From NCBI GenBank assembly GCA_040757475.1, contig JBFLWW010000004.1:31676-95675 (forward strand): a stretch of DNA of 64,000 nt, written 5' to 3'. The notes under the pieces are model-generated. The model was not told the origin of the DNA. It was given only the letters and a program-made list of their open reading frames with translations, and searched no databases. The position numbers were made by a program, and so were the translations under genes. Of this stretch, positions 16,486-50,650 are shown piece after piece; the first letter of the stretch is position 1, and the number at the start of each line of letters is the position of its first letter. This DNA comes from Nitrospirota bacterium (GTDB lineage: Bacteria; Nitrospirota; Thermodesulfovibrionia; Thermodesulfovibrionales; SM23-35).

Positions 16486-16640
16486 TGCTGCAGTGAAAAT
16501 CTCAAAATACCGCCTAAATAGAAATACTTATCCTTTGCCCAAAGTCCTACGCATCTGACCGGTAAACCATCAGAACCTTTTTGGACATTACATATGCTTT
16601 CAGGGGCATTTTTCTTATAATCACAGTCTCTACAAATCAT
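16482..16640 (-). CDS. small CxxC ORF (52 aa), possibly the frameshifted N-terminus of the downstream fusion gene
   Basis: MICRDCDYKKNAPESICNV…GLWAKDKYFYLGG…. Its ATG overlaps the R-M stop (ATGA) and its TGA overlaps the next ATG. It is below the ORF-track length cutoff. Confidence 0.4.
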   Translation of the reverse strand: MICRDCDYKKNAPESICNVQKGSDGLPVRCVGLWAKDKYFYLGGILRFSLQQ

Positions 16641-18382
16641 TGCTTTTTATAGATATCATCGATCTTTTCTTGCAATTCGACGGTTAACCTAATAGCCTTT
16701 GCAACTTTTATATAATGATTTATCTCATCAAGTGATAATTTTCGACCTTTTCTATCCTTCAAATATTTCTCCATTACCTGATAAGAACCAATACGGTATT
16801 CCCAGACTTCTTTAGAAACTCCCTCAAAATATTGCTTCTTGTTTAGAAAAACCCTCTGGTTAGCTTCATCATAAACGACCTTTTCAACTTTATTTGAGCC
16901 ACCTTCTGGAAAACCGATTTCGGTCCTATCAAGCGACGGATGCTTCAGCAAATGAAGGTCAACAAGTTCTTTCCCAAGATTGCTTAGTTTCTTAAATGAC
17001 TCACGATTTGAAGGCAAAGGGATTCTCGGAAAATCTATCTTGAGAAATTCCTCATATCGTTTCCGGTAAGTCGGAGAATAAAGGATTGCATAAATATAAT
17101 AGAAAATTTGTTCAGGTGTTGGAGACTTCTTAAGGGCTTTTGTTAACTGCTCAATTAATGTGGGAGAAATATTAGGCTTTTTAATATGATATTCTGCCAT
17201 TGGCTCAAAGAGAAGCATAAAGGTTTTGAGTGATTTTTTAGGATTGTCTCTTTTGGTCTCATAAATATAAAGTGGAAAGAAATAATTCTGGTCACCAATT
17301 ATATGTATATCTCCAATATTATTACATACAAAAGCAGGAATTCCAAATGTTTCTGGCATTCTTCTCGTTGTTACTAATCCGATATTTTCCTCAAAAAAGT
17401 TTTTCATTAAATCCCATCTGTCACATCCCCTGTCAATCAAATCTGGCAGATAGCAAATATATCTATTATCAAAAGGGCGATAGGCATATAGTCTGATAAA
17501 GTCTTTCCAGTCAGCCTTCTTTGCCTTTTCTTTTGCGGTGTTTAATTTCCAGTCACGCGTATCTTTTAAATCCAGTGCCTGCCTTATCAGTTCATAAGGC
17601 AAGTTGCTGGTAAAAGTTCTCATCCTCTGTTTGATTTCTTCTCTTGTAAATCCAACAACAAAATGGTCACGGTGAGTTTTCACACCACTCGACCATTCTT
17701 TAAATATCTCAGTCACCTTCCAAAACTTTTCATACTCAGCCTGCAAGGCAAAATCTTTTGGAATAAAGAAATAGTAAGGTGAAACAGGTTCAAGCTCTTG
17801 CCACCGTGTTGTTATCACATCGTTTTCAAAAAGGTATGCATATTTTTCCTTTCTCAGTCCCCAGAGGTCGGCATAATAGACTTTTTTCTTTTTCTGAGAT
17901 TTTTCTAATTTTACATATAAAGCAACAGAAACTCCCTGCTGGATGTCAAAAACATTCTCATCTCTGCCACCTTCAGGGGTCCTTTCTCCGATTCTCGATG
18001 AGCCGTGGAGGTTAAGAATATAAATCTCATCAAAGGCATCTAAAAGCTTTCTCCTCATGCCGCGATGGATTACTCCGGAAAGATAAGAGTTATTGGTAAT
18101 AAAACCTAACACCCCCTTGCCTGCCTGGTTTATCTTCCAGTGGGCAAAGCGGATGAACTTTATATAATCGTCAGAAAGGGGCTGGATATTCCGCTCATCC
18201 CTCACATCCTCTTTATAATCCTCCATCAGTTTTTCGATAAATTCTGACTTATTCTCTGAGCTGACAGAATAGGGAGGATTCCCGAAGATAACAAGGATAG
18301 GGACTTTTTCCTTTATCCTCTTTGCCTCCTGTCCTTCTTTTGCAAGGTCAATAAGAAAACTTACCTGCTTGGGCTCTTTCAT
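16637..18382 (-). CDS. type IIG/ISP-like R-M enzyme, C-terminal part (NPPY catalytic motif plus type-ISP-like specificity domain)
   Basis: VIFGNPPYSVSS (motif IV). C-terminal W-EYRIGSYQVMEKYLKDRKGRKLSLDE tail. It is in the same frame as 18407-19729, separated by one TAA plus 8 sense codons. Confidence 0.8.
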   Translation of the reverse strand: MKEPKQVSFLIDLAKEGQEAKRIKEKVPILVIFGNPPYSVSSENKSEFIEKLMEDYKEDVRDERNIQPLSDDYIKFIRFAHWKINQAGKGVLGFITNNSYLSGVIHRGMRRKLLDAFDEIYILNLHGSSRIGERTPEGGRDENVFDIQQGVSVALYVKLEKSQKKKKVYYADLWGLRKEKYAYLFENDVITTRWQELEPVSPYYFFIPKDFALQAEYEKFWKVTEIFKEWSSGVKTHRDHFVVGFTREEIKQRMRTFTSNLPYELIRQALDLKDTRDWKLNTAKEKAKKADWKDFIRLYAYRPFDNRYICYLPDLIDRGCDRWDLMKNFFEENIGLVTTRRMPETFGIPAFVCNNIGDIHIIGDQNYFFPLYIYETKRDNPKKSLKTFMLLFEPMAEYHIKKPNISPTLIEQLTKALKKSPTPEQIFYYIYAILYSPTYRKRYEEFLKIDFPRIPLPSNRESFKKLSNLGKELVDLHLLKHPSLDRTEIGFPEGGSNKVEKVVYDEANQRVFLNKKQYFEGVSKEVWEYRIGSYQVMEKYLKDRKGRKLSLDEINHYIKVAKAIRLTVELQEKIDDIYKKQ

Positions 18383-18406
18383 CTCTAAGGTATTGGTGAG
18401 ATAGAA

Positions 18407-19729
18407 TTAAAACCTCTCACCCTCTTTGAAGCGATAACCCATCTCTTCGAGAACCATGGAGACCTTGAAATGTCCTACAGTATAAGGAGCAACAAGAATC
18501 TCAAAGGCATGAAAATGGGGCAGAATATGCTCTTCCATGTAAGATTTAATAAGCCCTTCCTTCTTTTTCTCTTCCAGTTCTTTCTGAACCTGTTTGATTG
18601 CCTGAACTACAAATGTGAGAGTTCCAGCAGCAGGGTCAAGGAGAGTTATATCATCTGTGGCAAGTCCTTCGACTTTCCCGAACCTTTCTTTCAACAATTT
18701 ATGAATTGATCTCACAATGTATGAAACAACAGGCAGTGGTGTATAGTAGACCCCTAATCTTTCTCTCTCCTTTGGGTTATAAGTTGCGAGAAAGGTCTCG
18801 TAAAAATGAATTACAGGGTCTTCATCCCATCGAGTGGTCTTGAATTCTTTAAGTATTGAAGAAATCTCCGCTTTTTCAAGAACCTGACTTATATCATCAA
18901 CAATCCATGTTAGTGACTCAGGGAAATGAGGACCTGTCATAGAATGGAATATCTCTTTGAGCAAGGGTAAACTTTCAGGTATGAATTTCCATGCAATCTC
19001 TCTTTTAAACCCGTTTCGAACCTTCATCCTTGCAGCAAAAAGCCCGTAAGTTATTGTCTGTGCATAAAGGTCAGCAAACCTATCTTTTGTCAAAGTTTCT
19101 ATAAGTTCTTCCTGAAAAGCTTTATAAAACCTTGTTACTTCTTCATTTTCTCTTGAAAGCTCATCCTGTAAGATGTGTTCAAGGAATCGAGTTCTCTTTG
19201 CAAGTTGTACGGAAAGGTCAGATGATTTCTGGATCTCAGGAGTTGAGAATAAGAAGAATTTTTGTAAAAGATTAAGAAATGAATCCAATTTTTCAGGGGC
19301 AGGAGGATGTTTCAAACTCTTTAAAGTGAACTGGCGTCCTGCTTCAACCTTATCTATAAGGTTTCCATATCTATATAACCTGAATTCCAGGAAATTCGTT
19401 AAGATAAGGTTTGGTAAAGAATCCCTGTATCTCTTGAGCTGATCTGAATCTTCAATCTCACTGAGGTTTGTATCTGGTGTCTTTGCTTCAATATAGCCTA
19501 TTATTTCACCGTTCTTACCGATACGAAAATCGGGGATGCCTACTTCTGTCTTTCTTGGGAGAACAAGCACACTTGCAAAAGCTTCTAATCTAAAAATATG
19601 TGAAAACTCTTCAAAAAATCTCTTAAGGGTTTGTAGTTCTTCAACTGCTCCACCTGATGCTGGAAGAATTTTAAGCTCTCTTCCGAGAAGGTCTAATAAA
19701 GGTGTAATTGAAGCTAAAGGATTAGGCAT
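18407..19729 (-). CDS. type IIG/ISP-like R-M enzyme, N-terminal part (PD-ExK-like motif plus AdoMet-binding half of the N6-adenine MTase)
   Basis: IPDFRIGKNGEIIGYIEAK (D…EAK), FADLYAQTITYGLFAAR, GVYYTP and LLDPAAGTLTF (motif I). It ends at an in-frame TAA (18407-18409). Confidence 0.8.
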   Translation of the reverse strand: MPNPLASITPLLDLLGRELKILPASGGAVEELQTLKRFFEEFSHIFRLEAFASVLVLPRKTEVGIPDFRIGKNGEIIGYIEAKTPDTNLSEIEDSDQLKRYRDSLPNLILTNFLEFRLYRYGNLIDKVEAGRQFTLKSLKHPPAPEKLDSFLNLLQKFFLFSTPEIQKSSDLSVQLAKRTRFLEHILQDELSRENEEVTRFYKAFQEELIETLTKDRFADLYAQTITYGLFAARMKVRNGFKREIAWKFIPESLPLLKEIFHSMTGPHFPESLTWIVDDISQVLEKAEISSILKEFKTTRWDEDPVIHFYETFLATYNPKERERLGVYYTPLPVVSYIVRSIHKLLKERFGKVEGLATDDITLLDPAAGTLTFVVQAIKQVQKELEEKKKEGLIKSYMEEHILPHFHAFEILVAPYTVGHFKVSMVLEEMGYRFKEGERF

Positions 19730-34479: not shown

Positions 34480-34555
34480 TGGTGGACGGTAGGGGATTCG
34501 AACCCCCGACTTCCACGTTGCGAACGTGGTGCTCTCCCACCTGAGCTAACCGCCC
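34480..34555 (-). tRNA. tRNA-Ala (CGC)
   Basis: Cloverleaf by hand: GGGCGGT acceptor with G3:U70, anticodon loop TTCGCAA, GGTTCGAATCC T-arm, encoded CCA. Confidence 0.9.
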
Positions 34556-34738
34556 ATTTAAAACACTGATCAGTTAACAGTGGACAGTGAATAGTAAAAT
34601 ATGAAAGATAATACAGTCAACTCTAAATGCTGAATATAAGGGCATGTTGACACAAATTCTTATAAACTCTTATAATTTATAGCCTCTAAGCAAATTTCGC
34701 TCTGTAAAATTTGCAGTGATTAGTTATCAGTCGTTAGT

Positions 34739-34815
<77 letters not shown>

Positions 34816-34947
34816 TGCAAATTTCGCAGAGCGAAATTTGCAGTGAATAGTTATTAGTGATTCGTGTTTAGTTTAAATTGAAAAATTTATTCTATTTTTG
34901 ATTTATACTATTAACTAATCACTATTCACTGATAACTGTCTTTAATC

Positions 34948-35024
34948 GGTGAGTGTAGCTCAATGGTTAGAGCACTGGACTGTGGCTCCAGGTGTTGGGG
35001 GTTCAAGTCCCCTCACTCACCCCA
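34948..35024 (+). tRNA. tRNA-His (GTG)
   Basis: Extra 5' G(-1), anticodon loop CTGTGGC, GGTTCAAGTCC, encoded CCA. Confidence 0.9.
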
Positions 35025-35026
35025 AT

Positions 35027-35100
35027 GCGCCTGTAGCTCAGTGGATTAGAGCATCGGCCTCCGGAGCCGAGGGTCGGAGGTTCAAATCCTCTCAGGCGCG
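35027..35100 (+). tRNA. tRNA-Arg (CCG)
   Basis: GCGCCTG acceptor, anticodon loop CTCCGGA, GGTTCAAATCC. CCA is not encoded. It lies 2 nt after tRNA-His. Confidence 0.9.
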
Positions 35101-35200
35101 CTAAGCGAATTTTGCAGAGCAAAATTCGCAGTTGTCAGTGATTAGTCTTCAGTTGTCAGTAAACTGAACACTTAAAACTGGCAACTAAAAAACTGGAAGT

Positions 35201-35276
<76 letters not shown>

Positions 35277-35319
35277 TCTGAGGCCTCCAAAAAGTCAAAG
35301 ACTTTTTTGGAGTAGCTAT

Positions 35320-35394
35320 GCCGGTGTAGCTCAGAGGCAGAGCAGCTGATTCGTAATCAGCTGGTCGGGGGTTCGACTCTCCCCACCGGCTCCA
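35320..35394 (+). tRNA. tRNA-Thr (CGT)
   Basis: GCCGGTG acceptor, anticodon loop TTCGTAA, GGTTCGACTC T-arm, encoded CCA. Confidence 0.9.
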
Positions 35395-38578: not shown

Positions 38579-40204
38579 TTAACCCTCCATTCCTGGGAGT
38601 GGTTCACCACGCAGATTGGTTGTCCTCTTCTTCTCTCCCTTGCACACCAATGCATTTGCAACCATCTCGTGAACGCCGGTGACACTCACACCGGGAACCC
38701 AGTAATCCATAAGGGGTGGAAGGACAGCCCTGTCAATCGCACAAATACAGGCCAGCATGTTCACTCCAAATTTTTCTTTGACATATTTTACAGCATTAGC
38801 TCTCGGGAAGCCTCCCCTCATCCTTAATTCCATATCTTCTGATGCATTTATGCCAGAGCCGCTGCCGCAGCAGAAGTTTTGCTCTCTTATGGTATTTGGC
38901 GGCATATCGTAGAAGTAGTTACACACATTCTTGATGATATACCGCGGTTCCTCAAAGATTCCCATACCTCTTGAGATATTACAGGAGTCATGGAAGGTAA
39001 CCCTCAGGTTATCATTTCTACTCGGGTCGAGTTTTAGTTTGCCGTGCTTGATGAGGTCAGCAGTAAATTCGCAGATGTGAACCATCTTCGTAGATTTTGC
39101 ATTCTCGAATTTAGTGCCTGTAATAGGGGAGACCGGTTCCTCGAGGAAATCAGGGGGGCCATTCCATGTATTCATATATTGGTGCATGACCCTCCACATA
39201 TGGCCACATTCCCCTCCAAGTATCCATTTCACCTTCAATCTCTTGGCTTCAGCATATATCTTGGAGTTGAGCCTTTTCGCCATCTCATTTGAGGTGAAAA
39301 AGCCGAAGTTTCCACCATCAGAGGCATATGTACTCCAGGTGTAGTCGAGTCCGAGCTCATGGAAGAGCAACAGAGTGCCCATGGTAAGGTATGTGCCCCG
39401 TTCATCAAAGAAATCACCAGAAGGTACGACATAGAGTATCTCGGCGCCCTTTCTGTTGAAGGTTGGCGTTACCCTGATACCCGTTACAGCCTCTAAATCT
39501 TTTATATACATATCGAAATATTCTCTGAATGTATGGGGCAGGATGCCGAGGTGATTCCCTGTCCTGTAACATTTCGCCACAGATGCAGAGACCCAGTGGA
39601 TATTTAAACCCAACAGATTAAGGAGTTCTCTGCCCATTATCGTAATCTCAGCCGTATCAATTCCATAAGGGCAGAATAGCGAGCAGCGGCGACACTCGGT
39701 GCACTGATAAAAATAATACCACAGCTCTTTCAGCACATCATAAGTGAGCTCTCTTGCCCCGGCAAGCCTCCCCATGACCTTTCCTGATGTTGTAAAGTAC
39801 TTTCTATATAAAGATCTAAGAAGTTCTGCCCTGAGAACAGGCATATTTTTCGGGTCTCCTCCTCCAATAAAGAAGTGGCATTTGTCAGCGCATGCACCGC
39901 ATCTCACACAGATATCCATAAAGAGCTTAAAAGAACGGTACTTGCTGAGCCGCTCTTTAATACCTTCTAAGACTATCTCTTTCCAGTTTTCGGGCAGTTT
40001 CCAGTCCTCATCTTTTACTGACCATGACCTCGGGTTCGGGAACCCAACAGTTTTAAGGTCTTCCGGCTTATTACCATAGCAATACATGTTAGGCTTGAAT
40101 TCAACAGGGGTTTCCATCCAAGCCTTTTGAGGAGGCTTATAATCTACCCTCGATAGCTCATCTGGATAAGGTACCCCTTTCGGAACTACTGGTTTCTGTG
40201 CCAT
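38579..40204 (-). CDS. dsrK: DsrK (HdrD-like catalytic subunit, CCG domains)
   Basis: CVRCGACADKC and CTECRRCSLFCP ferredoxin motifs, and CCG-type motifs (…NFCCGSGSG…). Confidence 0.9.
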   Translation of the reverse strand: MAQKPVVPKGVPYPDELSRVDYKPPQKAWMETPVEFKPNMYCYGNKPEDLKTVGFPNPRSWSVKDEDWKLPENWKEIVLEGIKERLSKYRSFKLFMDICVRCGACADKCHFFIGGGDPKNMPVLRAELLRSLYRKYFTTSGKVMGRLAGARELTYDVLKELWYYFYQCTECRRCSLFCPYGIDTAEITIMGRELLNLLGLNIHWVSASVAKCYRTGNHLGILPHTFREYFDMYIKDLEAVTGIRVTPTFNRKGAEILYVVPSGDFFDERGTYLTMGTLLLFHELGLDYTWSTYASDGGNFGFFTSNEMAKRLNSKIYAEAKRLKVKWILGGECGHMWRVMHQYMNTWNGPPDFLEEPVSPITGTKFENAKSTKMVHICEFTADLIKHGKLKLDPSRNDNLRVTFHDSCNISRGMGIFEEPRYIIKNVCNYFYDMPPNTIREQNFCCGSGSGINASEDMELRMRGGFPRANAVKYVKEKFGVNMLACICAIDRAVLPPLMDYWVPGVSVTGVHEMVANALVCKGEKKRTTNLRGEPLPGMEG

Positions 40205-40208
40205 ATAT

Positions 40209-41222
40209 TCACTCCTTTTCTACTGGCATTCTAGCCTCTTTCATCTTTTCCCTGAATTCATCCTCATATGCCTCGTATGTATGAACCTTGACAGGATAAT
40301 TCCAGGGATTGATGTGTCTTTTCATGCGGTTGTTATTCGCCAGGTTTCTTGTAGGACTGAGGAAGACCCCTGCCATGTGTGTTAGCTTGCTGAAGGGAAA
40401 ATAGACAAGTAAAGTGCTGACGAGAAAGAGATGTATATAAAAAAGAACTCCAATCCCCTCAGGGACCTTTGGATTAAAACTGACCAACCCCATGGTCAGC
40501 TCCTTCACGCCTACAACATTAACTTTGATAAAATATCTCATGAGGACGCCTGTAATTCCAATACCCAGTATCAAAAGGAGAGGAAAGTAATCAGCAGGAA
40601 GGGAAATGTAGCGTACCTGCGGAATAACAACCCTTCTGAGGAAGAGATAGGTCACAGCCAGCAAAAAGACTATATTTGTTATATAAAGTAAGGGCGCACC
40701 CAATAGAGATACCTGGAAAAAGGAATCCATTGACTCAAGTTGCTTCACGAAGGTAGGCACAGGCTCTGTAAACAATCTTAAATGTCTGATGAGAATGGTA
40801 AGAAAAGTCCAGTGGAATGCCAATGCTGCTGCCCAGAGCCACTTAGACGAACCATAAACAAGCTTAGTTCCTTCACTCAATTCCATCTTTGTGCTCCTGA
40901 AAAGAGAACGGAAAAGTAGCACTTCAAAGGCCATCCTCACAAAAACGCCTAAGGCACTCGAGGGGTTATCGATTTTATTTTGTTTGATCCATGGGAGAGA
41001 TTTTTCTTGACCGGCGGTTGTTGGTATGCGGAATGGGACAGGCGAACGTCCCCACTTCACGACGCGATAAACGATTCCAACGATGAACGTCGCAAAGGCT
41101 GCATAGGGTATAATAACTCCAAACAGAAAATTCAGATTCGCGCCCGCTACTCCCACAAAAACGAGCAAAATAAGTGCTATGACTGCAAAAAAGGAAACCC
41201 AGAGAGAAAGTCCGAAGTTCAT
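40209..41222 (-). CDS. dsrM: DsrM (NarI-like dihaem b membrane subunit)
   Basis: Polytopic protein with conserved His in the TM helices. It lies immediately upstream of dsrK. Confidence 0.85.
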   Translation of the reverse strand: MNFGLSLWVSFFAVIALILLVFVGVAGANLNFLFGVIIPYAAFATFIVGIVYRVVKWGRSPVPFRIPTTAGQEKSLPWIKQNKIDNPSSALGVFVRMAFEVLLFRSLFRSTKMELSEGTKLVYGSSKWLWAAALAFHWTFLTILIRHLRLFTEPVPTFVKQLESMDSFFQVSLLGAPLLYITNIVFLLAVTYLFLRRVVIPQVRYISLPADYFPLLLILGIGITGVLMRYFIKVNVVGVKELTMGLVSFNPKVPEGIGVLFYIHLFLVSTLLVYFPFSKLTHMAGVFLSPTRNLANNNRMKRHINPWNYPVKVHTYEAYEDEFREKMKEARMPVEKE

Positions 41223-41228
41223 TTGCTT

Positions 41229-41792
41229 TCACCTCGTTTCATATAGATTATCAATATTGCCGTCTTCGAGGTCCATCTCCTGCTCCTTGAGCTCATATAG
41301 CAGATTTGCCCTTTTCAGTAGACCAAATGTCCTGTTTCTCACCTCATTTGCCTTGAGCTCATAAATCTTCTCCCGACACTTCATATATATGTCAAAGGAG
41401 AGAAGGGCAAGATCGTCTATTCTGGACTCAAGTGTTAACAACTCTTCAGAGAGCCCGTCCTCCCGGACCTCTTTCGCTAGCTCCTTTCTGATTACTTTCT
41501 TTAGAAGGAAGACGAAGCCAATAGCCTGGGAAGGCGAAAAATCCTGAACCGCCCTGATTCTGATAATATTGTCGAGAAGTGGGGAAACCTTTTCAGAATC
41601 CATCCCATTGAGAAGTTCATCGAAGAGACCCTTTATCCCCTGGGAGACCGTATAACCAACTGGATTAGTGAATTGGTTCTTTTGATTTTTCAAAAAGTTT
41701 GAAGTGTCAGCAGAATAAGTCTCCGTTATTACGTCGAACCATCTTTTCAAAATGACAGATCTCTTTTCTGATAAGAGATTCTTCAACTCCAT
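41229..41792 (-). CDS. dsrT: DsrT-like protein (RsbRD N-terminal domain family)
   Basis: 187-aa helical protein (…ILKRWFDVITETY…AVQDFSPSQAIGFVFLLKKVIR…) directly upstream of dsrM, the position reported for dsrT. Assigned by context and pattern only. Confidence 0.55.
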   Translation of the reverse strand: MELKNLLSEKRSVILKRWFDVITETYSADTSNFLKNQKNQFTNPVGYTVSQGIKGLFDELLNGMDSEKVSPLLDNIIRIRAVQDFSPSQAIGFVFLLKKVIRKELAKEVREDGLSEELLTLESRIDDLALLSFDIYMKCREKIYELKANEVRNRTFGLLKRANLLYELKEQEMDLEDGNIDNLYETR

Positions 41793-41956: not shown

Positions 41957-42292
41957 TTATACACAGCCTGTTGGTTTTGGGAGCCCTGCATACCTACATG
42001 CCTGCTTTGCAGGTCCACCTGGGAAAAGCTCATATAGATATTTGGTGTTCGCCTTTTCAGGCCCAAAAAATTTGCCCATTTCCTTCACGAGCATCTTGAT
42101 AGGAGGAGCAATGTTGAACTTTATATAATACTCCCTCAACCACCTGATTATCTCCCAGTGTTTCTCATCAAGGGTAATCTCATCTTGTGCTGCAAGTTCT
42201 GGAGCCATTCCTTCCTCCCACGCCTCCCAGTCCTGGAGATAACCTTCTTCATCAATCTCGTATTCTTTTCCCTTATAACTCCACTTTGGCAT
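41957..42292 (-). CDS. dsrC: DsrC (sulfite reductase-associated sulfur carrier)
   Basis: 111 aa ending …CRYAGLPKPTGCV, with both conserved C-terminal cysteines. Confidence 0.95.
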   Translation of the reverse strand: MPKWSYKGKEYEIDEEGYLQDWEAWEEGMAPELAAQDEITLDEKHWEIIRWLREYYIKFNIAPPIKMLVKEMGKFFGPEKANTKYLYELFPGGPAKQACRYAGLPKPTGCV

Positions 42293-42440
42293 CTTTCTAC
42301 CTCCTTTCTCTGTTTGAATCTAACTTATTGATAGAAGAAATCTCCTATCAATCTTAACATAAATATTTTATCATAAAATCTTTCAATATAATTATTAAAT
42401 ATTGTATTTTGAATTTTCTATAATCAAGATTAGTAAATTA

Positions 42441-42522
42441 GACTGTAAAGACTAATACATATCTACATCTATGGTCAAATAAAAAAAATTTATCAGTAAA
42501 TGATGTTTATTTATTTACTCTT
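42441..42522 (-). promoter_or_regulatory. dsrC promoter block shared with dsrA
   Basis: Minus strand: …ATTTACTGATAAATTTTTTTTATTTGACC-N15-TATTAG. It is ~86% identical over ~58 nt to 47658-47708, with identical -35/-10 geometry. Confidence 0.6.
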
Positions 42523-42848
42523 TTAAGTAAGATAAAACATATATTTTCTGGGGTACGTCCTCTCTTGTCAGTTAAGGTATGTGTCCTCTGGTCATAATGC
42601 AAAAATACCTCTTTATAATCCTCTCCTGGTATTAAATCCCATGGGTTATCGTATTTACCCTCACAGGCAAAATTAAGTGCATCAACATAAGCCTCTCCAA
42701 GATTATGCCCGCTACGGTCAAAGACATACACAGCGCCACATTCACATCTTCCACCTGAAAACTCGTTACCGAGTTTGGTTCTTATTTCATGAGGTCTATC
42801 GAATAGACAGCCGCAAAATGGACATCTCGGTTCTCTATCTCTTCTCAT
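42507..42848 (-). CDS. Cys-rich (zinc-ribbon-like) protein of unknown function, coupled to dsrN
   Basis: 113 aa with RCPFCGC…RCECG. Its ATG overlaps the dsrN stop (ATGA). Confidence 0.6.
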   Translation of the reverse strand: MRRDREPRCPFCGCLFDRPHEIRTKLGNEFSGGRCECGAVYVFDRSGHNLGEAYVDALNFACEGKYDNPWDLIPGEDYKEVFLHYDQRTHTLTDKRGRTPENICFILLKRVNK

Positions 42849-44296
42849 ATCTCGTCACTCCTAACTCGCGCCTGTTTTCTGTAAGATACCGCCATGTTAA
42901 TAAGACCGTCTACCCACTCTCTTGCACCAAGCGCATGCAGGTGGGTGTAGGTGGCAAGGACATTTTTATAGCAGAGACCATCCATCTTATCAACTATCCC
43001 CTCTCCCCTCTTCATCTTGAAGGCAAAATAGATATCCTTCGACAAGCCTTCAGGCCGAGGGCTCAGGATGTCTGTGGCTACATCAGGGTTAAGGATACGG
43101 GAATAATGAAATTCATGCCCCCTGAGAACAGTGCCCACGGGATAATAAGGATTATGCCTGTGTACCTCTAATATTGTATAACCATGGGCCTGGGGTTTCT
43201 TCTCCAGACAGAATTTAATTGGAAAGACTCCTGTCATTGGATATGTTTTGTTATCGAGCACAAGAGCCTCTCCAAGATACATTAAGCCTCCGCATTCTGC
43301 ATATATAGGCAATCCATCTTCTACAGCTTTTCGTACTGATTTTCTAAATGCCTTATTTTTTGCAAGTGCAATTGCATGTGTCTCAGGGAAACCTCCACCA
43401 ATGTATAATGCGTCAATCTCAGGAAGTTTCATCTCTTTTAATGCGCTGACCGCCATCAATCTTACTCCTCTTTTTTCAAGTTCTTCAAAGTTTTCAGGAT
43501 AATAAAACTGAAAAGCTGAATCATGGATGATTCCAATCCTGAGTGACGAGTTTTTACAACTTTGAACTTTGAACTTTGAACTTTGAACTTCTAAGGGTTT
43601 TGCTTCCGTTGCAATACTCCATATTCCATTAAGGTTAATATATTTTCTTGCGACTTCTGCTGTAAAAGATAGCACCTTTTCAACTTCAGGGTGTTCCTGA
43701 AAGGGTGTAAGCCCCATATGTCTTTCTGATAAAAAATCATGTTTAAGCTTTGGGATTGAGCCAAGAACAGGGATGTTGCAGTATTTTTCTATTGTTTTTC
43801 TTATAACATTTTCATGCCTCGCACCAGCAATCTGATTTAAAACTACACCCCTTATATCAACCTTTTTATCAAACTTCTGCATTCCAAGTACTAAGGCGCC
43901 TGCTGTCCTTGTTACCTTTGTACAATCAAGTATAAGTAGCACTGGAGACTTAAGCATCTTAGAAAGCTCTGCTGTGCTGTATGTCCCTTCTGAATCCATT
44001 CCATCAAAAAGCCCTCTGTTGCCTTCTATGACAGCACAATCTGCTTTGCCAAAATGTTCTTTAAAAGAGGGGAGTATCCTTCCTTTACTAATTAAAAAAG
44101 GGTCGAGATTATAGCAGGGCTGCATCGCTGCAGAGGATAGCCATCCTGCATCAATATAATCAGGCCCTTTCTTATATGGCACAATTTTAAGGCCCTTCTC
44201 TTTCCACGCAACTATCAATCCAAGTGAAAGAATTGTTTTCCCTGAACCACCTCTCAGACCTGCAATTACAAGCCGTGGATAACGAGTTTTTTGCAT
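42845..44296 (-). CDS. dsrN: DsrN (cobyrinic acid a,c-diamide synthase homologue, siroheme amidase)
   Basis: CbiA pattern (RLVIAGLRGGSGKT…, a C-terminal GATase-like domain with ECGGLMYL). ATG 44296 lies behind GGAGAA. There is a tandem AACTTTG insertion in the linker. Confidence 0.85.
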   Translation of the reverse strand: MQKTRYPRLVIAGLRGGSGKTILSLGLIVAWKEKGLKIVPYKKGPDYIDAGWLSSAAMQPCYNLDPFLISKGRILPSFKEHFGKADCAVIEGNRGLFDGMDSEGTYSTAELSKMLKSPVLLILDCTKVTRTAGALVLGMQKFDKKVDIRGVVLNQIAGARHENVIRKTIEKYCNIPVLGSIPKLKHDFLSERHMGLTPFQEHPEVEKVLSFTAEVARKYINLNGIWSIATEAKPLEVQSSKFKVQSCKNSSLRIGIIHDSAFQFYYPENFEELEKRGVRLMAVSALKEMKLPEIDALYIGGGFPETHAIALAKNKAFRKSVRKAVEDGLPIYAECGGLMYLGEALVLDNKTYPMTGVFPIKFCLEKKPQAHGYTILEVHRHNPYYPVGTVLRGHEFHYSRILNPDVATDILSPRPEGLSKDIYFAFKMKRGEGIVDKMDGLCYKNVLATYTHLHALGAREWVDGLINMAVSYRKQARVRSDEI

Positions 44297-44344
44297 TTTA
44301 AAATTTTCTCCGATCTGATTTTTCCCCAACTCCAGCGACAAATA

Positions 44345-44840: not shown

Positions 44841-45089
44841 TTACTTTATGAGCCCTTTTTCTCTGAGATACGCCTCATCTGGGATCTCTACTGAGCTGGC
44901 ACCTCCGGCATAAGAATACATCAGCCTCCCCACATCTATCATCTCTCTCATGGTCTTCTTTACTGTATCTTTATCAACACCAGTCTGCTCCGATACCCCG
45001 TTTATCACATCCCTTTCTTTCAACTTTTTTTTGCCCTTTGCAGCCAGGACAAATGCATAAATCTTATCTTTCAGTTCTTCTATCTCCAT
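44841..45089 (-). CDS. dsrD: DsrD (small winged-helix protein of reductive dsr loci)
   Basis: 82 aa with a KGKKKLK basic patch and a …GRLMYSYAGGASS segment in the position of the DsrD YWSSGSTT motif. It lies directly downstream of dsrB. Confidence 0.7.
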   Translation of the reverse strand: MEIEELKDKIYAFVLAAKGKKKLKERDVINGVSEQTGVDKDTVKKTMREMIDVGRLMYSYAGGASSVEIPDEAYLREKGLIK

Positions 45090-45193: not shown

Positions 45194-46300
45194 CTACCAC
45201 TTAAATGTTGATTGATTCCTTAAGGTTTCCCTCATGAATGTAAAGTCATCAATAGCCTGGTACGTAAACTCAATACCGCTCAGTTTAAAGAACCTTTCCC
45301 AGCCGATTCTATCTATCCACTCACCTAACCTCTCATGTTTTCTTGCATTCTTGGCATATAACTCAATAATATGCTTCACTGCAGCAACAACCTTCGGCCA
45401 TCTCGGTGGTTCGTTCGATATATAAGGGATAACAAGCCTCGAGAATTTTGTAGGGGTCCTCAGGCAGTTTACCTTTCCACCTATAACTATTGCGAGGCCA
45501 TCTCTATAAGGGTCTTTGATATCTATAGCAGGGCAGACAGTAAAACAGTTGCCACAATACATGCATCTCTCGTCTTTAATCTTTACGCTCTTTTTAGCAG
45601 GATCAGGACTTATAGCCTTTGTCGGGCAGGATGCAATAACAGTAGGTATCTCACATATCTTCCCCAGCCTATCATGGTCAACAGGAGGTACCTTCGTATG
45701 TATCGCAACTACTGCAATGTCTGAACAGTGGACAGCACCGCACATATTAGGACAGCATGCGAGGGCGAGTCTTAGTTTAGCAGGAAGCTCTTTTGTTGTG
45801 ATATAATCAGCGACCTCATCCATGACAGCCTTAACTATACCAGAGGCATCTGTTGCAGCACCATGGCAGTGAACCCATCCCTGCGTATGAACCATATTGC
45901 TGATCCTCGGCCCCATACCACCAATCATGTAGCCCTTTTCTTTAAGCTCTTTCTGAAGAGGCTCAAGATTCTTTTCGTCTGATACGAGAAACTCTATATT
46001 ATTCCTCGAAGTCCAGCGGACATAACCTCCACAGTATTTATCTACTATATCACATACCTCACGGACTGTATCTGTAGCAATCAGTCTACAGGTTTGTACC
46101 CTTACACTCCATATCTTATCACCGCTTTCTGCAGTATGAACCATTACTCCAGGGCTTAATATCTCATGTTCTTTCCACTTACCATAATTCTTCTTGATTA
46201 CAGGATGTAAGAAGTTACTATAATGAGGTGGCCCTATGTCTGTCTCTCTGAGCCTCTTAGCTTCCTCTGCTGTTAATTTCCTATCACCATAGAATCCCAT
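45194..46300 (-). CDS. dsrB: dissimilatory sulfite reductase beta subunit
   Basis: 368 aa with siroheme/Fe-S cysteine clusters (CHGAATD…, [14 protein letters not shown]) and a ferredoxin insert ([12 protein letters not shown]). Confidence 0.95.
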
Positions 46301-46324: not shown

Positions 46325-47572
46325 TTAAAAAATGAACTTTCCGGTCTTCTTTTCTTCTTCCTCTCTCTTCTTAAACCTCTCAATATCCCCTTCAGTGAAG
46401 AAGAAGAATGGATCTCTCCTCGGCTCCTTTATCATCTGTGGAATGGGTTCTACTCCGATAGCCTCAAGGAATGACCTCATACCCTTAAACTCTATAACCT
46501 CTCCAATTCTTTCCCTCGGATGCGAATTCTCATCCCACCAGTCCCACATCTTCCTTGCAAGCTCCTTGAATTCAGTAAATGGTGGCTCCATCTTCATGAA
46601 TGGGATAATGACATGCGAAATAATAGTCCCTATAACAATCGGTGCCTTATTTCCGATACATATGGTTGCACCCCTCTCGCCACTCGGCTTGAGTGCATGA
46701 TGCATCTTTGATATACAGTGCATACATCTGTTGCATTCATCATTATTTATCTTTAATTCTTTACCATCATAACTGATGCACTCTGTCGGGCACATTTTCA
46801 CGATCTCTCTCGAGATGTCCATTCCCTTCTTTTCATGCCATTTAACAGCATCCTGGTCAATGAGTATCGGGCCTTTCCATGTCCCAATTACAGAACAGTC
46901 AGAGCGCGCGATGGAGGCACAGCAGTCACAGGCACAACCTGCAAACTTAAATTTAAATTTATAGTTGAATGCAGGTCTGTGGAGTTCATCCTGAAATTCC
47001 TGTGTAATCTGATGGCATGCCTCCATGGTATCATAATTTGCCCACTCGCAACGTGCTTGCCCAACACAACAGCTCGGAGTCCTCATGGCAGAGCCTGAAC
47101 CACCCAAATCAAATCTCAAATGAGCAGGTTTTTCCTTGGATGTAAGCTCAGCAAAGATGAGCTCAAGGTTCTCGGTCGTTGTACCGAGAAAGACCAAATC
47201 ACCTGTTGAGCCATGCATATTCATTATACCGCTTCCATACTTATCACAGATATCCGCGAGCTCCCTTAATACCTCTGTTGTATAGAACCAGCCACTCGGC
47301 TGATTAACCCTGACGGTATGGAAGAATTCTACATTGGGAAACATATGTGGTAGGTCAGAGTATCTCCCGATAACCCCGCCACCATAGCCGAGGACACCAA
47401 CAATACCACCATGTTTCCAGTAACCTCGCTTGGTTTTGAAAGAGTATTCGAGCTGACCCAGCTCATCATTGGCCATCTCATTTTTTGCAGCGGCCTTCTT
47501 GATCTCCTTAACGAAACTCGGAAACGGTCCCTTTTCCAGCTCGTCAAGCAATGGCGTTTCGTACTTTTTCAT
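46325..47572 (-). CDS. dsrA: dissimilatory sulfite reductase alpha subunit
   Basis: ATG 47572 behind GGAGG ([20 protein letters not shown]…). Cys clusters [13 protein letters not shown] and FAGCACDCC. Ferredoxin insert CNRCMHC. Confidence 0.95.
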
Positions 47573-47635
47573 AAAAACCTCCTTTTCTATTAATTTTGAG
47601 AAGCCTTTGTTACTAAGAAAAAAAGTAAGCACTTC

Positions 47636-47708
47636 AGCCTAATACAACATTTATCTAATAGTCAAATAAAAAAAATTAATCTGTAAATCATAATTATTTA
47701 TTCACTTG
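47636..47708 (-). promoter_or_regulatory. dsrA promoter block shared with dsrC
   Basis: Minus strand: …ATTTACAGATTAATTTTTTTTATTTGACT-N15-TATTAG. The -35 is at 47660-47665 and the -10 at 47639-47644, giving a ~60-nt leader. Confidence 0.6.
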
Positions 47709-47761
47709 ATATCTGAATTTTATTTTTGCACTGCTCTTTCCTGTATATAAAGAATTTTTTA

Positions 47762-47792
47762 TTTACATTAACCCCTGTATAGGTGCTATACT
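47762..47792 (+). promoter_or_regulatory. promoter candidate for bamA
   Basis: TTTACA-N19-TATACT, with TGC directly preceding the -10 (extended -10 form TGcTATACT), ~55 nt upstream of ATG 47849. Confidence 0.35.
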
Positions 47793-47848
47793 TATCGAGC
47801 TTTTCGAGTCTCGTGGGTTTTCTTATTAACTTCTAGTCGGGAGGCAAA

Positions 47849-50092
47849 ATGTGTAGGATAGTATTGCTATCGCTCTTTTTTAATCTGGTTTTAACATCAG
47901 GTATCCTATATGCCCAGGAGCTACCTATTGTCAACTCAATAGAGATCAGGGGGCTCAAAAGGATTGAGGAAAGTGCAGTAAAATCCAGGATTATCCAGAA
48001 ATTAGGTGAACCAATATCTCAGGATAAAACGAATGAAGACATTAAAAACATCTTCAAGATGGGGTATTTTGATGATGTCAGGGCTGAGATCGAACCATTA
48101 GAGGGCGGTATAAAGCTGATATATATTGTAAAAGAAAAACCCACCATTGTGAGAATCGAATTTCAGGGCAACAAGGAGTTTGACGATTCACATTTGAAGG
48201 AAAAGCTCACAATAACCGTTGGCGCCATTGCTGATGCTGTCCTGATCCAGGACAATGCAAACAGGCTCAGGGCATTTTATGAAGAAGAGGGGTACTGGTT
48301 ATCGAGCATAGTCCCTGTTATTAAAAGGATACGCGATGATGAGGTCAGCCTGACCTACCAGATAGAGGAAGGTCCAAAGGTAAGGATAAAGAAAATCAAT
48401 ATAGAGGGCAATAAAGCTATCTCCACACGCAGGATAAAAAAGGCTATGGATACCAGTGAATGGACGATTTTTTCCTTTATTACTTCCTCAGGCTACTATA
48501 AAAAGGATCAGATGAACACAGATATAGAAAAGGTAAAGGACCTCTATTTCAATAACGGATATATCAAGGCTGTGGTCGGAGAGCCTAAGATTCAGCTTAC
48601 AGAAGATAAAAAAGGAATGATTATAACAATACAGGTTTCAGAAGGTAATCAATACAGAATCTCCTCCTTAGAGTTTACAGGCAACAAGGCCTTTATTGAT
48701 GAAACTATAAGGGAGAGGATCAGTCTAACTCCTAACACTATATTCAGCAAAAACCTCTTGAGAAAAGACATCCTTTCAATATCTGAACTATACTCAGAAA
48801 ATGGGTATACGCTCATATCTGTATCGCCTGATCTAATACCTGATGATGCTACAAAACTTGTAAAAATATCCTTGAAGATAGACGAGGGTCACAAATACAG
48901 AATAGGTAAGATAGAGATTTCAGGAAACATTAAAACCAGAGACAAGGTTATAAGAAGGGAGGTAAGGCTCGACGAGGGTGATGTATTTAATAGCACTATG
49001 ATAAAAAGAAGCTATGAAAGGATCAATAACCTTAACTTTTTTGAAACAGTAGAAATAGTTACTGAGCCGCGTCCTGAGGAGAAATTAGTAGACCTCAACA
49101 TTAAGGTAAAAGAAAGGCCAACAGGCTTTTTAAGTATAGGCGGAGGATATAGTTCTGTTGATAAATTTATTGGAACTATTGACCTGACACAGGGGAATCT
49201 CTTTGGTAAAGGACAGTATATAAAGTTAAAGGGGGAGTTCGGTGGAAGAAGTACATTCTACGAACTCTCCTTCAGAGAGCCATGGTTTATGGATAAGCCA
49301 ATCTCGTTCTCTACAAGTATTTATAAGACGAGCAGACAATACATAGAATACGAGAAAAAGGCAACAGGATTTGGTGTTTCCTTTGGTAAAAGTTTCACAG
49401 AATACTGGAGGGGCGATATCGCATACAACTTTGAGAATGCAACGATATTCAATATATCTGAACAGGCCTCAACCAAGATAAAGGAGCAGGAAGGCACAAG
49501 GATAACCAGCAGTATCACCCCTTCTTTAGTAAGAGACTCGAGAGACAACTACCTCGACCCATCAAGGGGCTCGAGGAATTCCTTTTACCTCACATATGCA
49601 GGACTTGGAGGAACTAACTACTTTGTAAAGAGTGGCGTTGACTCTGCCTGGTATTTCCCGCTTGATAGCACAACCTTCATGTTAAGGGGCAGGTTTGGTT
49701 ATGGTACTGGTATCTGGGGTAAGGAACTACCATTATATGAGAGGTTTTATGTAGGCGGGATCTATACTGTAAGAGGATTGGGGTTTGGTGAGGCAGGACC
49801 AAAGGATAAACAAACAGGAGATGAGATAGGAGGCACAGAAGAACTGATTTTTAATACAGAATACATATTCCCGATTTTTAGCGAATTAAAACTCAAGGGT
49901 GTGGTCTTCTTTGATGCAGGTAATGCTTATGAATCCTTTAAAAAATTCGGCAGCCTCAGATATACTACTGGGACTGGCATAAGATGGATTTCGCCAATGG
50001 GGCCCATAAGGATTGAGTGGGGTTACAACCTGGATAGAAAATTAGGAGAGAGTGCCAGCAGGCTTGAATTCACCTTTGGAACATTTTTTTAA
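47849..50092 (+). CDS. bamA: outer membrane protein assembly factor BamA
   Basis: Signal peptide, five POTRA-like repeats and a C-terminal beta-barrel ending …RLEFTFGTFF. Confidence 0.9.
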   Translation: MCRIVLLSLFFNLVLTSGILYAQELPIVNSIEIRGLKRIEESAVKSRIIQKLGEPISQDKTNEDIKNIFKMGYFDDVRAEIEPLEGGIKLIYIVKEKPTIVRIEFQGNKEFDDSHLKEKLTITVGAIADAVLIQDNANRLRAFYEEEGYWLSSIVPVIKRIRDDEVSLTYQIEEGPKVRIKKINIEGNKAISTRRIKKAMDTSEWTIFSFITSSGYYKKDQMNTDIEKVKDLYFNNGYIKAVVGEPKIQLTEDKKGMIITIQVSEGNQYRISSLEFTGNKAFIDETIRERISLTPNTIFSKNLLRKDILSISELYSENGYTLISVSPDLIPDDATKLVKISLKIDEGHKYRIGKIEISGNIKTRDKVIRREVRLDEGDVFNSTMIKRSYERINNLNFFETVEIVTEPRPEEKLVDLNIKVKERPTGFLSIGGGYSSVDKFIGTIDLTQGNLFGKGQYIKLKGEFGGRSTFYELSFREPWFMDKPISFSTSIYKTSRQYIEYEKKATGFGVSFGKSFTEYWRGDIAYNFENATIFNISEQASTKIKEQEGTRITSSITPSLVRDSRDNYLDPSRGSRNSFYLTYAGLGGTNYFVKSGVDSAWYFPLDSTTFMLRGRFGYGTGIWGKELPLYERFYVGGIYTVRGLGFGEAGPKDKQTGDEIGGTEELIFNTEYIFPIFSELKLKGVVFFDAGNAYESFKKFGSLRYTTGTGIRWISPMGPIRIEWGYNLDRKLGESASRLEFTFGTFF

Positions 50093-50104
50093 TCAGGAGG
50101 AGAA

Positions 50105-50650
50105 ATGAAAAATAGACTTATAGTTTTTGTTTTTTCACTTTTCACTTTTTACTTTTCACTTTTCACTTTTTTATTCGCAGCCGATACAATAATGAAGATA
50201 GGGTATATGGACCTTCAGAAGGTCTTGAATGAATCCGAGGCTGGAAAGAAGGCTAAATTTGACCTCGAGTCTTTAATAAAATCTAAACAATCTTTTATAG
50301 ACGAAAAGGGCAGGGCTATAGAAAAGATAAGGGGTGATCTGGAAAAACAGGCATCTGTACTTTCTGCAGAGGCAAGAAAAAACAAAGAAGAGGAACTCGA
50401 AAAATTGCTCAGGGAATACCAGCGGCTTGTCCAAGATTCACAGGCCGAGGTCAAGAAGAAAGAGGGAGAGCTGACAGGTGCAATAATAAAAGAGATGCGA
50501 GAAATAGTAGAGAAGATAGGCGAGGAAGAAGGATACACCTTTATATTTGAGAAGGCTGAAGGTATAATCCTTTACTCAAATAAAGACCTCGACATTACAG
50601 ATACGGTCATAAAGAAATATAACGAATCAAAGGCCAGACCAAAAAAGTAG
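50105..50650 (+). CDS. skp: periplasmic chaperone Skp (OmpH family)
   Basis: Signal peptide plus a long charged coiled-coil, located between bamA and lpxD. The signal-peptide core is encoded by (TTTCACT)n. Confidence 0.85.
   Translation: MKNRLIVFVFSLFTFYFSLFTFLFAADTIMKIGYMDLQKVLNESEAGKKAKFDLESLIKSKQSFIDEKGRAIEKIRGDLEKQASVLSAEARKNKEEELEKLLREYQRLVQDSQAEVKKKEGELTGAIIKEMREIVEKIGEEEGYTFIFEKAEGIILYSNKDLDITDTVIKKYNESKARPKK

Follow-up and report, generated by a model that had tools for sequence, protein, structure and literature searches.

An apparently undescribed control element upstream of the dissimilatory sulfite reduction genes dsrA and dsrC in Nitrospirota

A block of about 70 bp is shared by the regions upstream of dsrA and dsrC in a 64,000-nt stretch of DNA from a Nitrospirota bacterium (contig JBFLWW010000004.1; hereafter, the window), and it is apparently a real and previously undescribed control element of the dissimilatory sulfite reduction (dsr) genes. 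The block is conserved in related genomes, specific for dsrA and dsrC, constant in its spacing and promoter-like in its anatomy. No published description of this motif was found in literature searches.

The two copies in the window

The dsrA copy (47708 to 47636) and the dsrC copy (42521 to 42449), both read on the gene (minus) strand, could be aligned gap-free, the offset being 5187 nt throughout. Within the limits drawn in an earlier note on this DNA, 53 of the 73 nucleotides were identical; the identity was 40/48 from the distal end through TTGAC, and a repeat search of the window returned a 49-nt core pair (42471-42519 and 47658-47706) at 86% identity. T8-ATTTGAC and an identical TGTATTAG are present in both blocks. 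The gap-free alignment, the upstream identity of about 86% and the identical A8/T8 tract described in the earlier note were borne out, whereas its description of the two promoters as unlinked was wrong, as both belong to one dsr cluster, on the same strand, with 5.2 kb between them.

Local ungapped alignment of the dsrA and dsrC intergenic regions scored 24 at best, compared with 10.1 ± 1.3 (maximum 16) for shuffled sequences, none of 1000 of which reached 24. Even when as many as 3 mismatches are tolerated, the window has two occurrences of the 21-nt core GATWARTTTTTTTWATTTGAC and no more, against 0.06 expected. The nhmmer profile of the block matched the dsrA copy in full length (47703-47636, 44.9 bits) and the dsrC copy at 42517-42449 (45.7 bits), and found no third copy in the 64 kb. 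Both blocks are very probably promoters.

Conservation across Nitrospirota

A protein-anchored set of 43 loci was obtained by a DsrA protein search of species-representative genomes. Fourteen were of Nitrospirota type (DsrA 66-94% identical), 11 of them usable, one having masked upstream DNA and two being truncated. The module was upstream of dsrA in all 11 usable loci (11/11), 73-215 nt away, and also upstream of dsrC in the 3/3 protein-anchored loci containing this gene; it was absent from all 29 non-Nitrospirota dsrA loci of the set. Conservation in related genomes, which the earlier note had named as a check, was thus found. As expected of an operator, the module is conserved before orthologous genes in Nitrospirota genomes whose DsrA identity is no more than 51-92%, while the flanks and the -35/-10 spacer diverge. 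Judged from these alignments, conserved boxes together with a free spacer indicate functional constraint and not recent common descent.

An nhmmer profile was built from 16 protein-anchored copies, and a metagenome collection was scanned for the 21-nt core, which gave at least 120 stretches. The profile search covered 1.44 Mb of loci, and all metagenome-derived counts given here and below are counts among the matches listed. DsrA identity to the window across the metagenome set was 51-100%. The 145 nhmmer matches fell into two classes, full-length and partial. Full-length matches, with scores from 23.8 bits upwards (36 or more in all but two), comprised 59 before dsrA, 50 before dsrC, 6 on contigs ending before the gene and one, in locus L154, before genes for YeeE (PF04143) and TusA (PF01206). 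The 29 partial matches (10-22 bits) were nearly all the scanned core alone, without flanking boxes and -10, in unrelated AT-rich DNA; 23 were non-dsr, 5 were on truncated contigs and one was the dsrC motif of L075 met again on the opposite strand. They are chance matches, except for opposite-strand echoes of palindromic dsrC sites in L075 and L095. After removal of duplicates 99 copies were listed: 50 dsrA, 41 dsrC, 7 on truncated contigs and L154.

The downstream gene, AATAAryAA, ATsATT, TRTwT, TAnnnT at a fixed distance and a-g-C were not imposed by the scan. Eleven contigs carried the module before both the dsrA and the dsrC operon, as expected of a regulon; of the nine with both copies in one locus, eight have them at a distance of 4.9-6.0 kb and one at 11.9 kb. 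Random non-promoter copies, the case that would speak against a promoter element according to the earlier note, were not seen, with 2 copies in 64 kb and full-length matches at dsr promoters and L154. The expectation that the motif would also be found at sat, aprBA and qmo gained no support: it was at none of these genes among about 110 true motif matches listed, an indirect test with no Nitrospirota sat/apr/qmo locus in the data. No sat, apr or qmo gene was found in the window or its short contig extensions, Sat protein motifs were present in only two of the loci examined, both non-Nitrospirota, and a protein search seeded with one non-Nitrospirota Sat returned only Planctomycetota-type Sat.

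In L154 (3367-5303, contig Ga0187779_10000359) the full-length module (31.9 bits) is about 180 nt upstream of a YeeE/YedE-type transporter gene, followed by tusA. This is the only non-dsr target among the matches listed, and it is functionally related.

Two further groups of copies were observed. In the dsrC subclass of L074, L075, L095 and L136, CTTATC replaces ATsATT and an A-run lies upstream; nhmmer matches the opposite strand in L075 and L095. Loci L120, L131, L157 and L162 belong to a divergent DsrA clade (51-53% identity) with the N-terminal extension MG.PGQEHLWDKEVKGHRTYND; in these the module is about 200 nt upstream of the start, and the long dsrA leaders share a CCAGAGGAAGGGGGTG element.

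Anatomy of the module

The full consensus is AATAAryAAw - nATsATT - N4 - GATwAr - T8 - ATTTGACy - N14 - TRTwT - TAnnnT - N4-5 - aGC. All features below are on the minus strand, and the negative positions given in brackets are distances from the predicted transcription start of dsrA.

The distal box is AATAAATAAT in the dsrA copy (47693-47702, about -73 to -64) and AATAAATAAA in the dsrC copy (42506-42515), where it overlaps the last codons and the stop (42507-42509) of orf113, an open reading frame (ORF) between dsrN and dsrC. It is kept in most dsrA and many dsrC copies and, since it is lost in some GC-rich lineages, is probably accessory. The next box is ATGATT at dsrA (47686-47691, about -62 to -57) and ATCATT at dsrC (42499-42504); ATGATT or GTGATT is found in 39 of the 50 non-redundant dsrA copies, and the ATsATT columns of the 16 protein-anchored copies, numbered -31 to -26 in the alignment, hold 0.7-2.0 bits each, with at least 1.1 bits in 5/6. 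Directly 5' of the T-tract is GATTAA at dsrA (47676-47681, about -52 to -47) or GATAAA at dsrC (42489-42494), the dsrC class having mostly GATAAG. Within the protein-anchored copies of GATwAr the G is conserved in 14/16 and the following A, T and second A in 16/16 each.

The T8 tract, which is A8 on the plus strand, is at 47668-47675 for dsrA and at 42481-42488 for dsrC, and T8 or T7A is present in nearly all copies. At dsrA it lies about -46 to -39, at the position of the proximal subsite of an upstream promoter (UP) element, with A/T-rich boxes continuing to -73. The -35 hexamers are TTGACT (dsrA, 47660-47665), preceded by an invariant AT, and TTGACC (dsrC, 42473-42478). ATTTGA was invariant in the 16 protein-anchored copies and the following C was present in 14/16; TTGACC was found in 38/41 non-redundant dsrC copies, and TTGACC or TTGACG is the -35 in most metagenome copies. 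In the protein-anchored copies each of the 14 positions that follow TTGAC holds about 0.1-0.8 bits, mostly less than 0.5, and conservation resumes at T.TATTA...T.

The dsrA copy has TGTAT (47642-47646; consensus TRTwT), similar to a -16 region, directly 5' of the proposed -10 TAGGCT (47636-47641; TAnnnT), and the dsrC copy has TGTAT (42459-42455) and the proposed -10 TAGTCT (42454-42449); the spacer is 18 nt in both. The predicted transcription starts are a G/C at 47629-47631 for dsrA, 6-7 nt after the -10, which would give a leader of about 57 nt to the ATG at 47572, and 42443-42444 for dsrC, with a leader of about 151 nt; the dsrC class has tTTAtAGCC conserved downstream of its -10. These predictions rest on a conserved a-g-C located 5-7 nt past the -10 in the 99 non-redundant copies.

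Assignment of the -10 region

The earlier note placed the -10 at TATTAG, 15 nt from TTGACy. The distance itself was measured correctly, but the assignment is probably off by 3 nt: TAGGCT/TAGTCT, separated from the -35 by 18 nt, makes the better -10. A TAnnnT that begins 19 nt after TTGAC, leaving a spacer of 18 nt after TTGACy, is present in 98% of the 99 copies, against 89% for TwTTA at the former position, and the T at the sixth position of TAnnnT is unexplained under the TATTAG reading. The 18-nt spacing is normal for this organism, since the two tRNA promoters of the window also use it (TTGACA-N18-TATAAT and TTGACT-N18-TACTAT). TATTAG with a 15-nt spacer was therefore replaced. As in sigma-70-type promoters, the -35 is close to TTGACA, and the -10, whose second base is A and whose sixth is T, follows it at a distance within the usual 16-18 nt.

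The tRNA promoters mentioned are two outward-facing textbook sigma-70 promoters of a cluster of six tRNA genes (34480-35394). As both are without T8/GATwAr, the upstream module is not generic to the strong promoters of this organism. A 17-nt instead of an 18-nt spacer between TTGAyn and TAnnnT was observed in both the dsrA and the dsrC promoters of one locus (L002, 9875-9943 and 14792-14857).

Proposed mechanism and alternative explanations

A common control element, as a regulator-binding site and/or UP element, had been proposed in the earlier note. A shared, selectively maintained promoter-proximal element is upheld by the data, and a regulator site and an UP element are not separable computationally. 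The reading towards which we lean is a composite one, of sigma-70-type promoters with a dsr-specific upstream activating module made of the T-tract and a site for a dedicated activator. Within the one dsr cluster the module would serve dsrABD-N-orf113 as a first transcription unit and dsrC-dsrTMK... as a second. The promoter of each would consist of a near-consensus -35 TTGACy, a non-conserved 18-nt spacer, TRTwT and a weak TAnnnT -10. The T-tract may provide an UP-element-like contact or a bend for the C-terminal domain of the RNA polymerase alpha subunit, and GATwAr with the boxes upstream of it may be the site of a sequence-specific, lineage-restricted activator touching the polymerase just upstream of the -35. 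DsrAB and DsrC would as a result be expressed at a high level and in concert, and so would, in at least one relative, a YeeE/TusA operon for sulfur import.

From the sequence we infer where transcription starts, that the module activates and does not repress, and that it has a dedicated factor. Activation is suggested because all extra conservation is upstream of the -35, which is activator or UP geometry, because the T-tract is at the position of the proximal UP subsite, and because the conserved G and the discrete boxes to about -73 exceed A/T richness and are restricted to sulfur genes. The weak -10 fits a promoter relying on upstream activation. Repressors usually bind in the spacer between -35 and -10, and here that spacer varies freely. 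The G kept in 14/16 copies, in an element made up of A/T for the rest, suggests that specific bases are recognised and not simply a high A/T content. More tentatively, and with somewhat less than even confidence, the module could be the operator of a lineage-restricted master activator of Nitrospirota (Thermodesulfovibrionia-type) dissimilatory sulfur metabolism, acting on dsrABD(N), dsrC-dsrTMKJOP and YeeE/TusA and not on sat/apr/qmo.

Several points weigh against the composite reading. All source organisms are uncultured and known as metagenome-assembled genomes (MAGs), and the transcription starts are predicted from sequence. The proposed -10 is weak, with a 3/6 match to the Escherichia coli consensus TATAAT, and a simple promoter scanner calls neither the dsrA nor the dsrC site. 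The module is without clear dyad symmetry or complementary covariation, so that a classical dimeric regulator is not indicated; the best dyad is a weak T.AT-N6-AT.A with its centre at offset -23.5, and complementarity does not exceed that of column composition. No conserved regulator gene was found beside the cluster, the neighbours being bamA, skp-like, lpxD, lpxI, SMC and TPR genes, none of which codes for a DNA-binding protein. Conservation of the core in the metagenome set is partly by construction, as it was the search pattern, and only the 16 protein-anchored copies are unbiased at the core positions; the YeeE/TusA target rests on a single contig. Finally, the genes belong to core energy metabolism, and a strong promoter that needs no factor would account for the conservation as well.

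Such a promoter, in which the module is an UP-type element read by the alpha subunits together with bending by the T-tract and no dedicated regulator takes part, DsrAB and DsrC being needed in bulk, is the most serious alternative, and we regard it as possible but on the whole unlikely. It accounts for T8 directly upstream of the -35 at the proximal UP subsite position with invariant spacing, for the lack of clear dyad symmetry and for that of a neighbouring regulator gene, and DsrC has been described as highly expressed in sulfate reducers (PMC6470260). However, the module does not match by inspection the E. coli UP consensus nnAAAWWTWTTTTnnnAAAnnn, with A-tracts on the non-template strand; the conserved G and the defined boxes to about -73 reach further than an UP element usually does; the module is missing from the tRNA promoters of this genome; and the sole non-dsr occurrence listed is a sulfur-transport operon and not ribosomal or housekeeping genes.

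An operator of a repressor or of a global redox or metal regulator (Rex-, Fur- or HcpR-like) flanking the -35 is improbable. Rex sites have been predicted for dsrABD and dsrMKJOP of Desulfovibrio (PMC4045070) and HcpR sites for sat/apsAB (PMC545781), ATTTGACC is one half-site of the HcpR variant ATTTGACCNNGGTCAAAT (PMC545781), and the GATAA/TTATC half-sites are reminiscent of Fur-family boxes. But no Rex-like TTGTGAAnnnnTTCACAA was found at 42300-42600 or 47570-47850 with up to 3 mismatches (8 weak matches elsewhere in the window, 5.7 expected), ATTTGACC has no partner half-site, and the sequence of the spacer is not conserved. Palindromic covariation was not found, and the boxes are upstream of the -35 and not over the core promoter. 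A palindromic operator was rejected for want of covariation support, and by inspection the conserved columns agree with neither an IHF site nor a DnaA or Fur box.

A promoter of an alternative sigma factor with an extended -35 recognition that includes T8-ATTTGAC would explain why the 15-nt T8ATTTGAC is far stricter than a usual -35 and why the -10 is non-canonical (TAnnnT only). It is nevertheless very improbable: TTGAC, the 18-nt spacer and TAnnnT have the geometry of the housekeeping-type tRNA promoters of the window, and by inspection none of the consensuses compared, those of sigma-28, sigma-32, sigma-54, extracytoplasmic function (ECF) and sporulation sigma factors, is matched.

Two similar AT-rich segments 5 kb apart could also be repeats, copies of a mobile element, or the product of a recent duplication or of gene conversion, without regulatory meaning. 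This was rejected as next to impossible on copy number (2 copies in 64 kb; full-length matches in 1.44 Mb at dsrA/dsrC promoters and L154, plus contigs ending early) and because the identity between dsrA and dsrC copies within genomes (0.652) is hardly above that between genomes (0.631), with 0.493 vs 0.487 at the variable columns. The module also keeps its place and orientation with respect to dsrA and dsrC across distant genomes. The equality of the variable columns argues for shared constraint as the source of the similarity and not recent duplication. A transcribed RNA element, either a leader structure or a terminator of the upstream gene with T8 as U-tract, was rejected with the same near certainty: the dsrC block directly follows orf113 and the dsrC subclass L074, L075, L095 and L136 forms the extended palindrome A7-CTTATC-N4-GATAAG-T8, but RNAalifold gave no consensus structure on either strand over the 99 copies, shuffled sequences fold as well as the two copies of the window do (z = +0.39 and -1.03), Rfam gave no match, the dsrA copy follows no co-oriented gene, bamA being divergent, and a terminator scan makes no call.

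The dsr gene cluster and other features of the window

The cluster is on the minus strand in the order dsrA-dsrB-dsrD-like-dsrN-orf113 and then dsrC-dsrT-dsrM-dsrK. dsrA (46325-47572; TIGR02064, 522 bits; PF01077/PF03460) is the first gene of the first unit, and its product is an exact match to MEW6674839.1 of the MAG Nitrospirota bacterium, which the window proteins also match exactly. It is followed by dsrB (45194-46300), a gene in the dsrD position for an 82-aa protein (44841-45089) with no Pfam or NCBIfam match, a dsrN-like amidase gene (42845-44341) and orf113 (42507-42848). The 82-aa protein is probably a divergent DsrD; tblastn places homologues after dsrB in relatives, with 31-45% identity in other phyla. 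The second unit comprises dsrC (41957-42292; PF04358, 147 bits; TIGR03342) as first gene, dsrT-like (41229-41792), dsrM (40209-41222) and dsrK (38579-40204).

The product of orf113 is a Cys-rich protein of 113 aa (CPFC...CEC) without a family match. Its BLAST cluster spans 37 motif-bearing loci, under the NCBI label of hypothetical protein; tblastn found it in none of the 29 non-Nitrospirota dsr loci, and it co-occurs with the motif by lineage. As a candidate for the factor it was set aside, with no Pfam, NCBIfam or PDB match and an unusable single-sequence AlphaFold model (predicted local distance difference test, pLDDT, 50).

The dsrC leader contains a stem-loop, TTGATAGGAG-ATTT-CTTCTATCAA (42318-42341, minus strand), about 25 nt upstream of the start codon, which belongs to the dsrC transcription unit and is outside the shared block. 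A hairpin at a comparable position is found in most of the 41 listed Nitrospirota dsrC leaders, with different stems (TTGTTGGGA/TCCCTTCAA, TTGCAGGGA/TCTCTGCAA, CAGGGGGG/CCCAGG); when folded one by one these leaders had a mean z of -1.9, with 51% below -2. There was no Rfam match. The hairpin may stabilise or regulate the mRNA.

bamA (47849-50092, plus strand) is divergent from dsrA here, and in 21 loci this synteny of outer-membrane biogenesis genes and the dsr cluster is conserved. Downstream of bamA (47849-50650, plus strand) is a 181-aa ORF found in 18 loci, tentatively skp-like and here without annotation, with lpxD/lpxI-like genes further along in relatives. At 16637-19729 (minus strand) adjacent ORFs have Type ISP C-terminal specificity/Eco57I-like and N6-methylase domains, and look like a restriction-modification enzyme split over two reading frames.

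Significance and comparison with known systems

Nitrospirota that cycle sulfur occur widely in groundwater, sediments and wetlands, almost all of them uncultured, and the module offers a way into the control of their core energy genes. The module changes no concept of gene regulation. Its DNA (21-40 nt) is usable as bait for the regulator, a search of complete MAG chromosomes with its motif could delimit the regulon, and it would be a ready-made strong native promoter for future genetics. Co-ordinated synthesis of DsrAB and DsrC is predicted, in contrast with the non-coordinate expression reported in Desulfovibrio. If a master activator does act here, the outcome would be a 'Dsr regulon' organised unlike the Rex/HcpR control of Desulfovibrio, and the 21-nt core would both mark the dsr genes of Nitrospirota in metagenomes, as a cis-regulatory barcode, and be a bait for the factor.

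In UP-element promoters such as E. coli rrnB P1, known from Ross/Gourse-type work, an A/T-rich region from -40 to -60 is contacted by the alpha C-terminal domain. The dsr module resembles them in its A/T-rich, rigidly placed tract next to a near-consensus -35 and in its association with genes needing very high expression. It differs from the E. coli UP element in having T8 instead of the A-tract consensus, a conserved G at about -52 and boxes to about -73, and, unlike the UP promoters of rRNA, tRNA and ribosomal genes, it is located at dsrA/dsrC and at one yeeE-tusA operon. With class I/II activator-dependent promoters (CRP/FNR or response-regulator type) it shares a weak -10 and a conserved sequence in fixed phase directly next to the -35 or a little upstream of it; unlike those, it is without a clear dyad or helical-phase direct repeat.

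Regarding the regulators of sulfate reducers, dsrABD and dsrMKJOP of Desulfovibrio are predicted Rex targets (PMC4045070) and sat/apsAB are HcpR targets, HcpR coverage excluding dsrAB (PMC545781); an HcpR-variant palindrome with a ATTTGACC half has been described for delta-proteobacteria (PMC545781). Like these sites, the module is a cis-element common to several dissimilatory sulfur operons and found by comparative genomics. Rex and HcpR sites, however, are palindromes (TTGTGAAnnnnTTCACAA; TTGTGAnnnnnnTCACAA or ATTTGACCnnGGTCAAAT) of known dimeric regulators, mostly repressors, while the module has no clear symmetry, lies upstream of the -35 and is from a different phylum. HcpR covers sat/apsAB and not dsrAB, and the Nitrospirota module, as far as seen, does the reverse.

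The regulation of dsr genes has been studied in Allochromatium vinosum (Grimm et al. 2010, as cited in PMC8794893), and DsrD, once suspected to be a regulator, binds DNA only non-specifically (PMC8794893). For Desulfovibrio vulgaris, dsvC is cited as 'not coordinately regulated' with dsvAB (Karkhoff-Schweizer et al. 1993, as cited in PMC6470260). As in other sulfur bacteria, the dsrC promoter of the Nitrospirota is separate from that of dsrAB; unlike in D. vulgaris, the same upstream module is present on both promoters, which argues for co-ordinated control.

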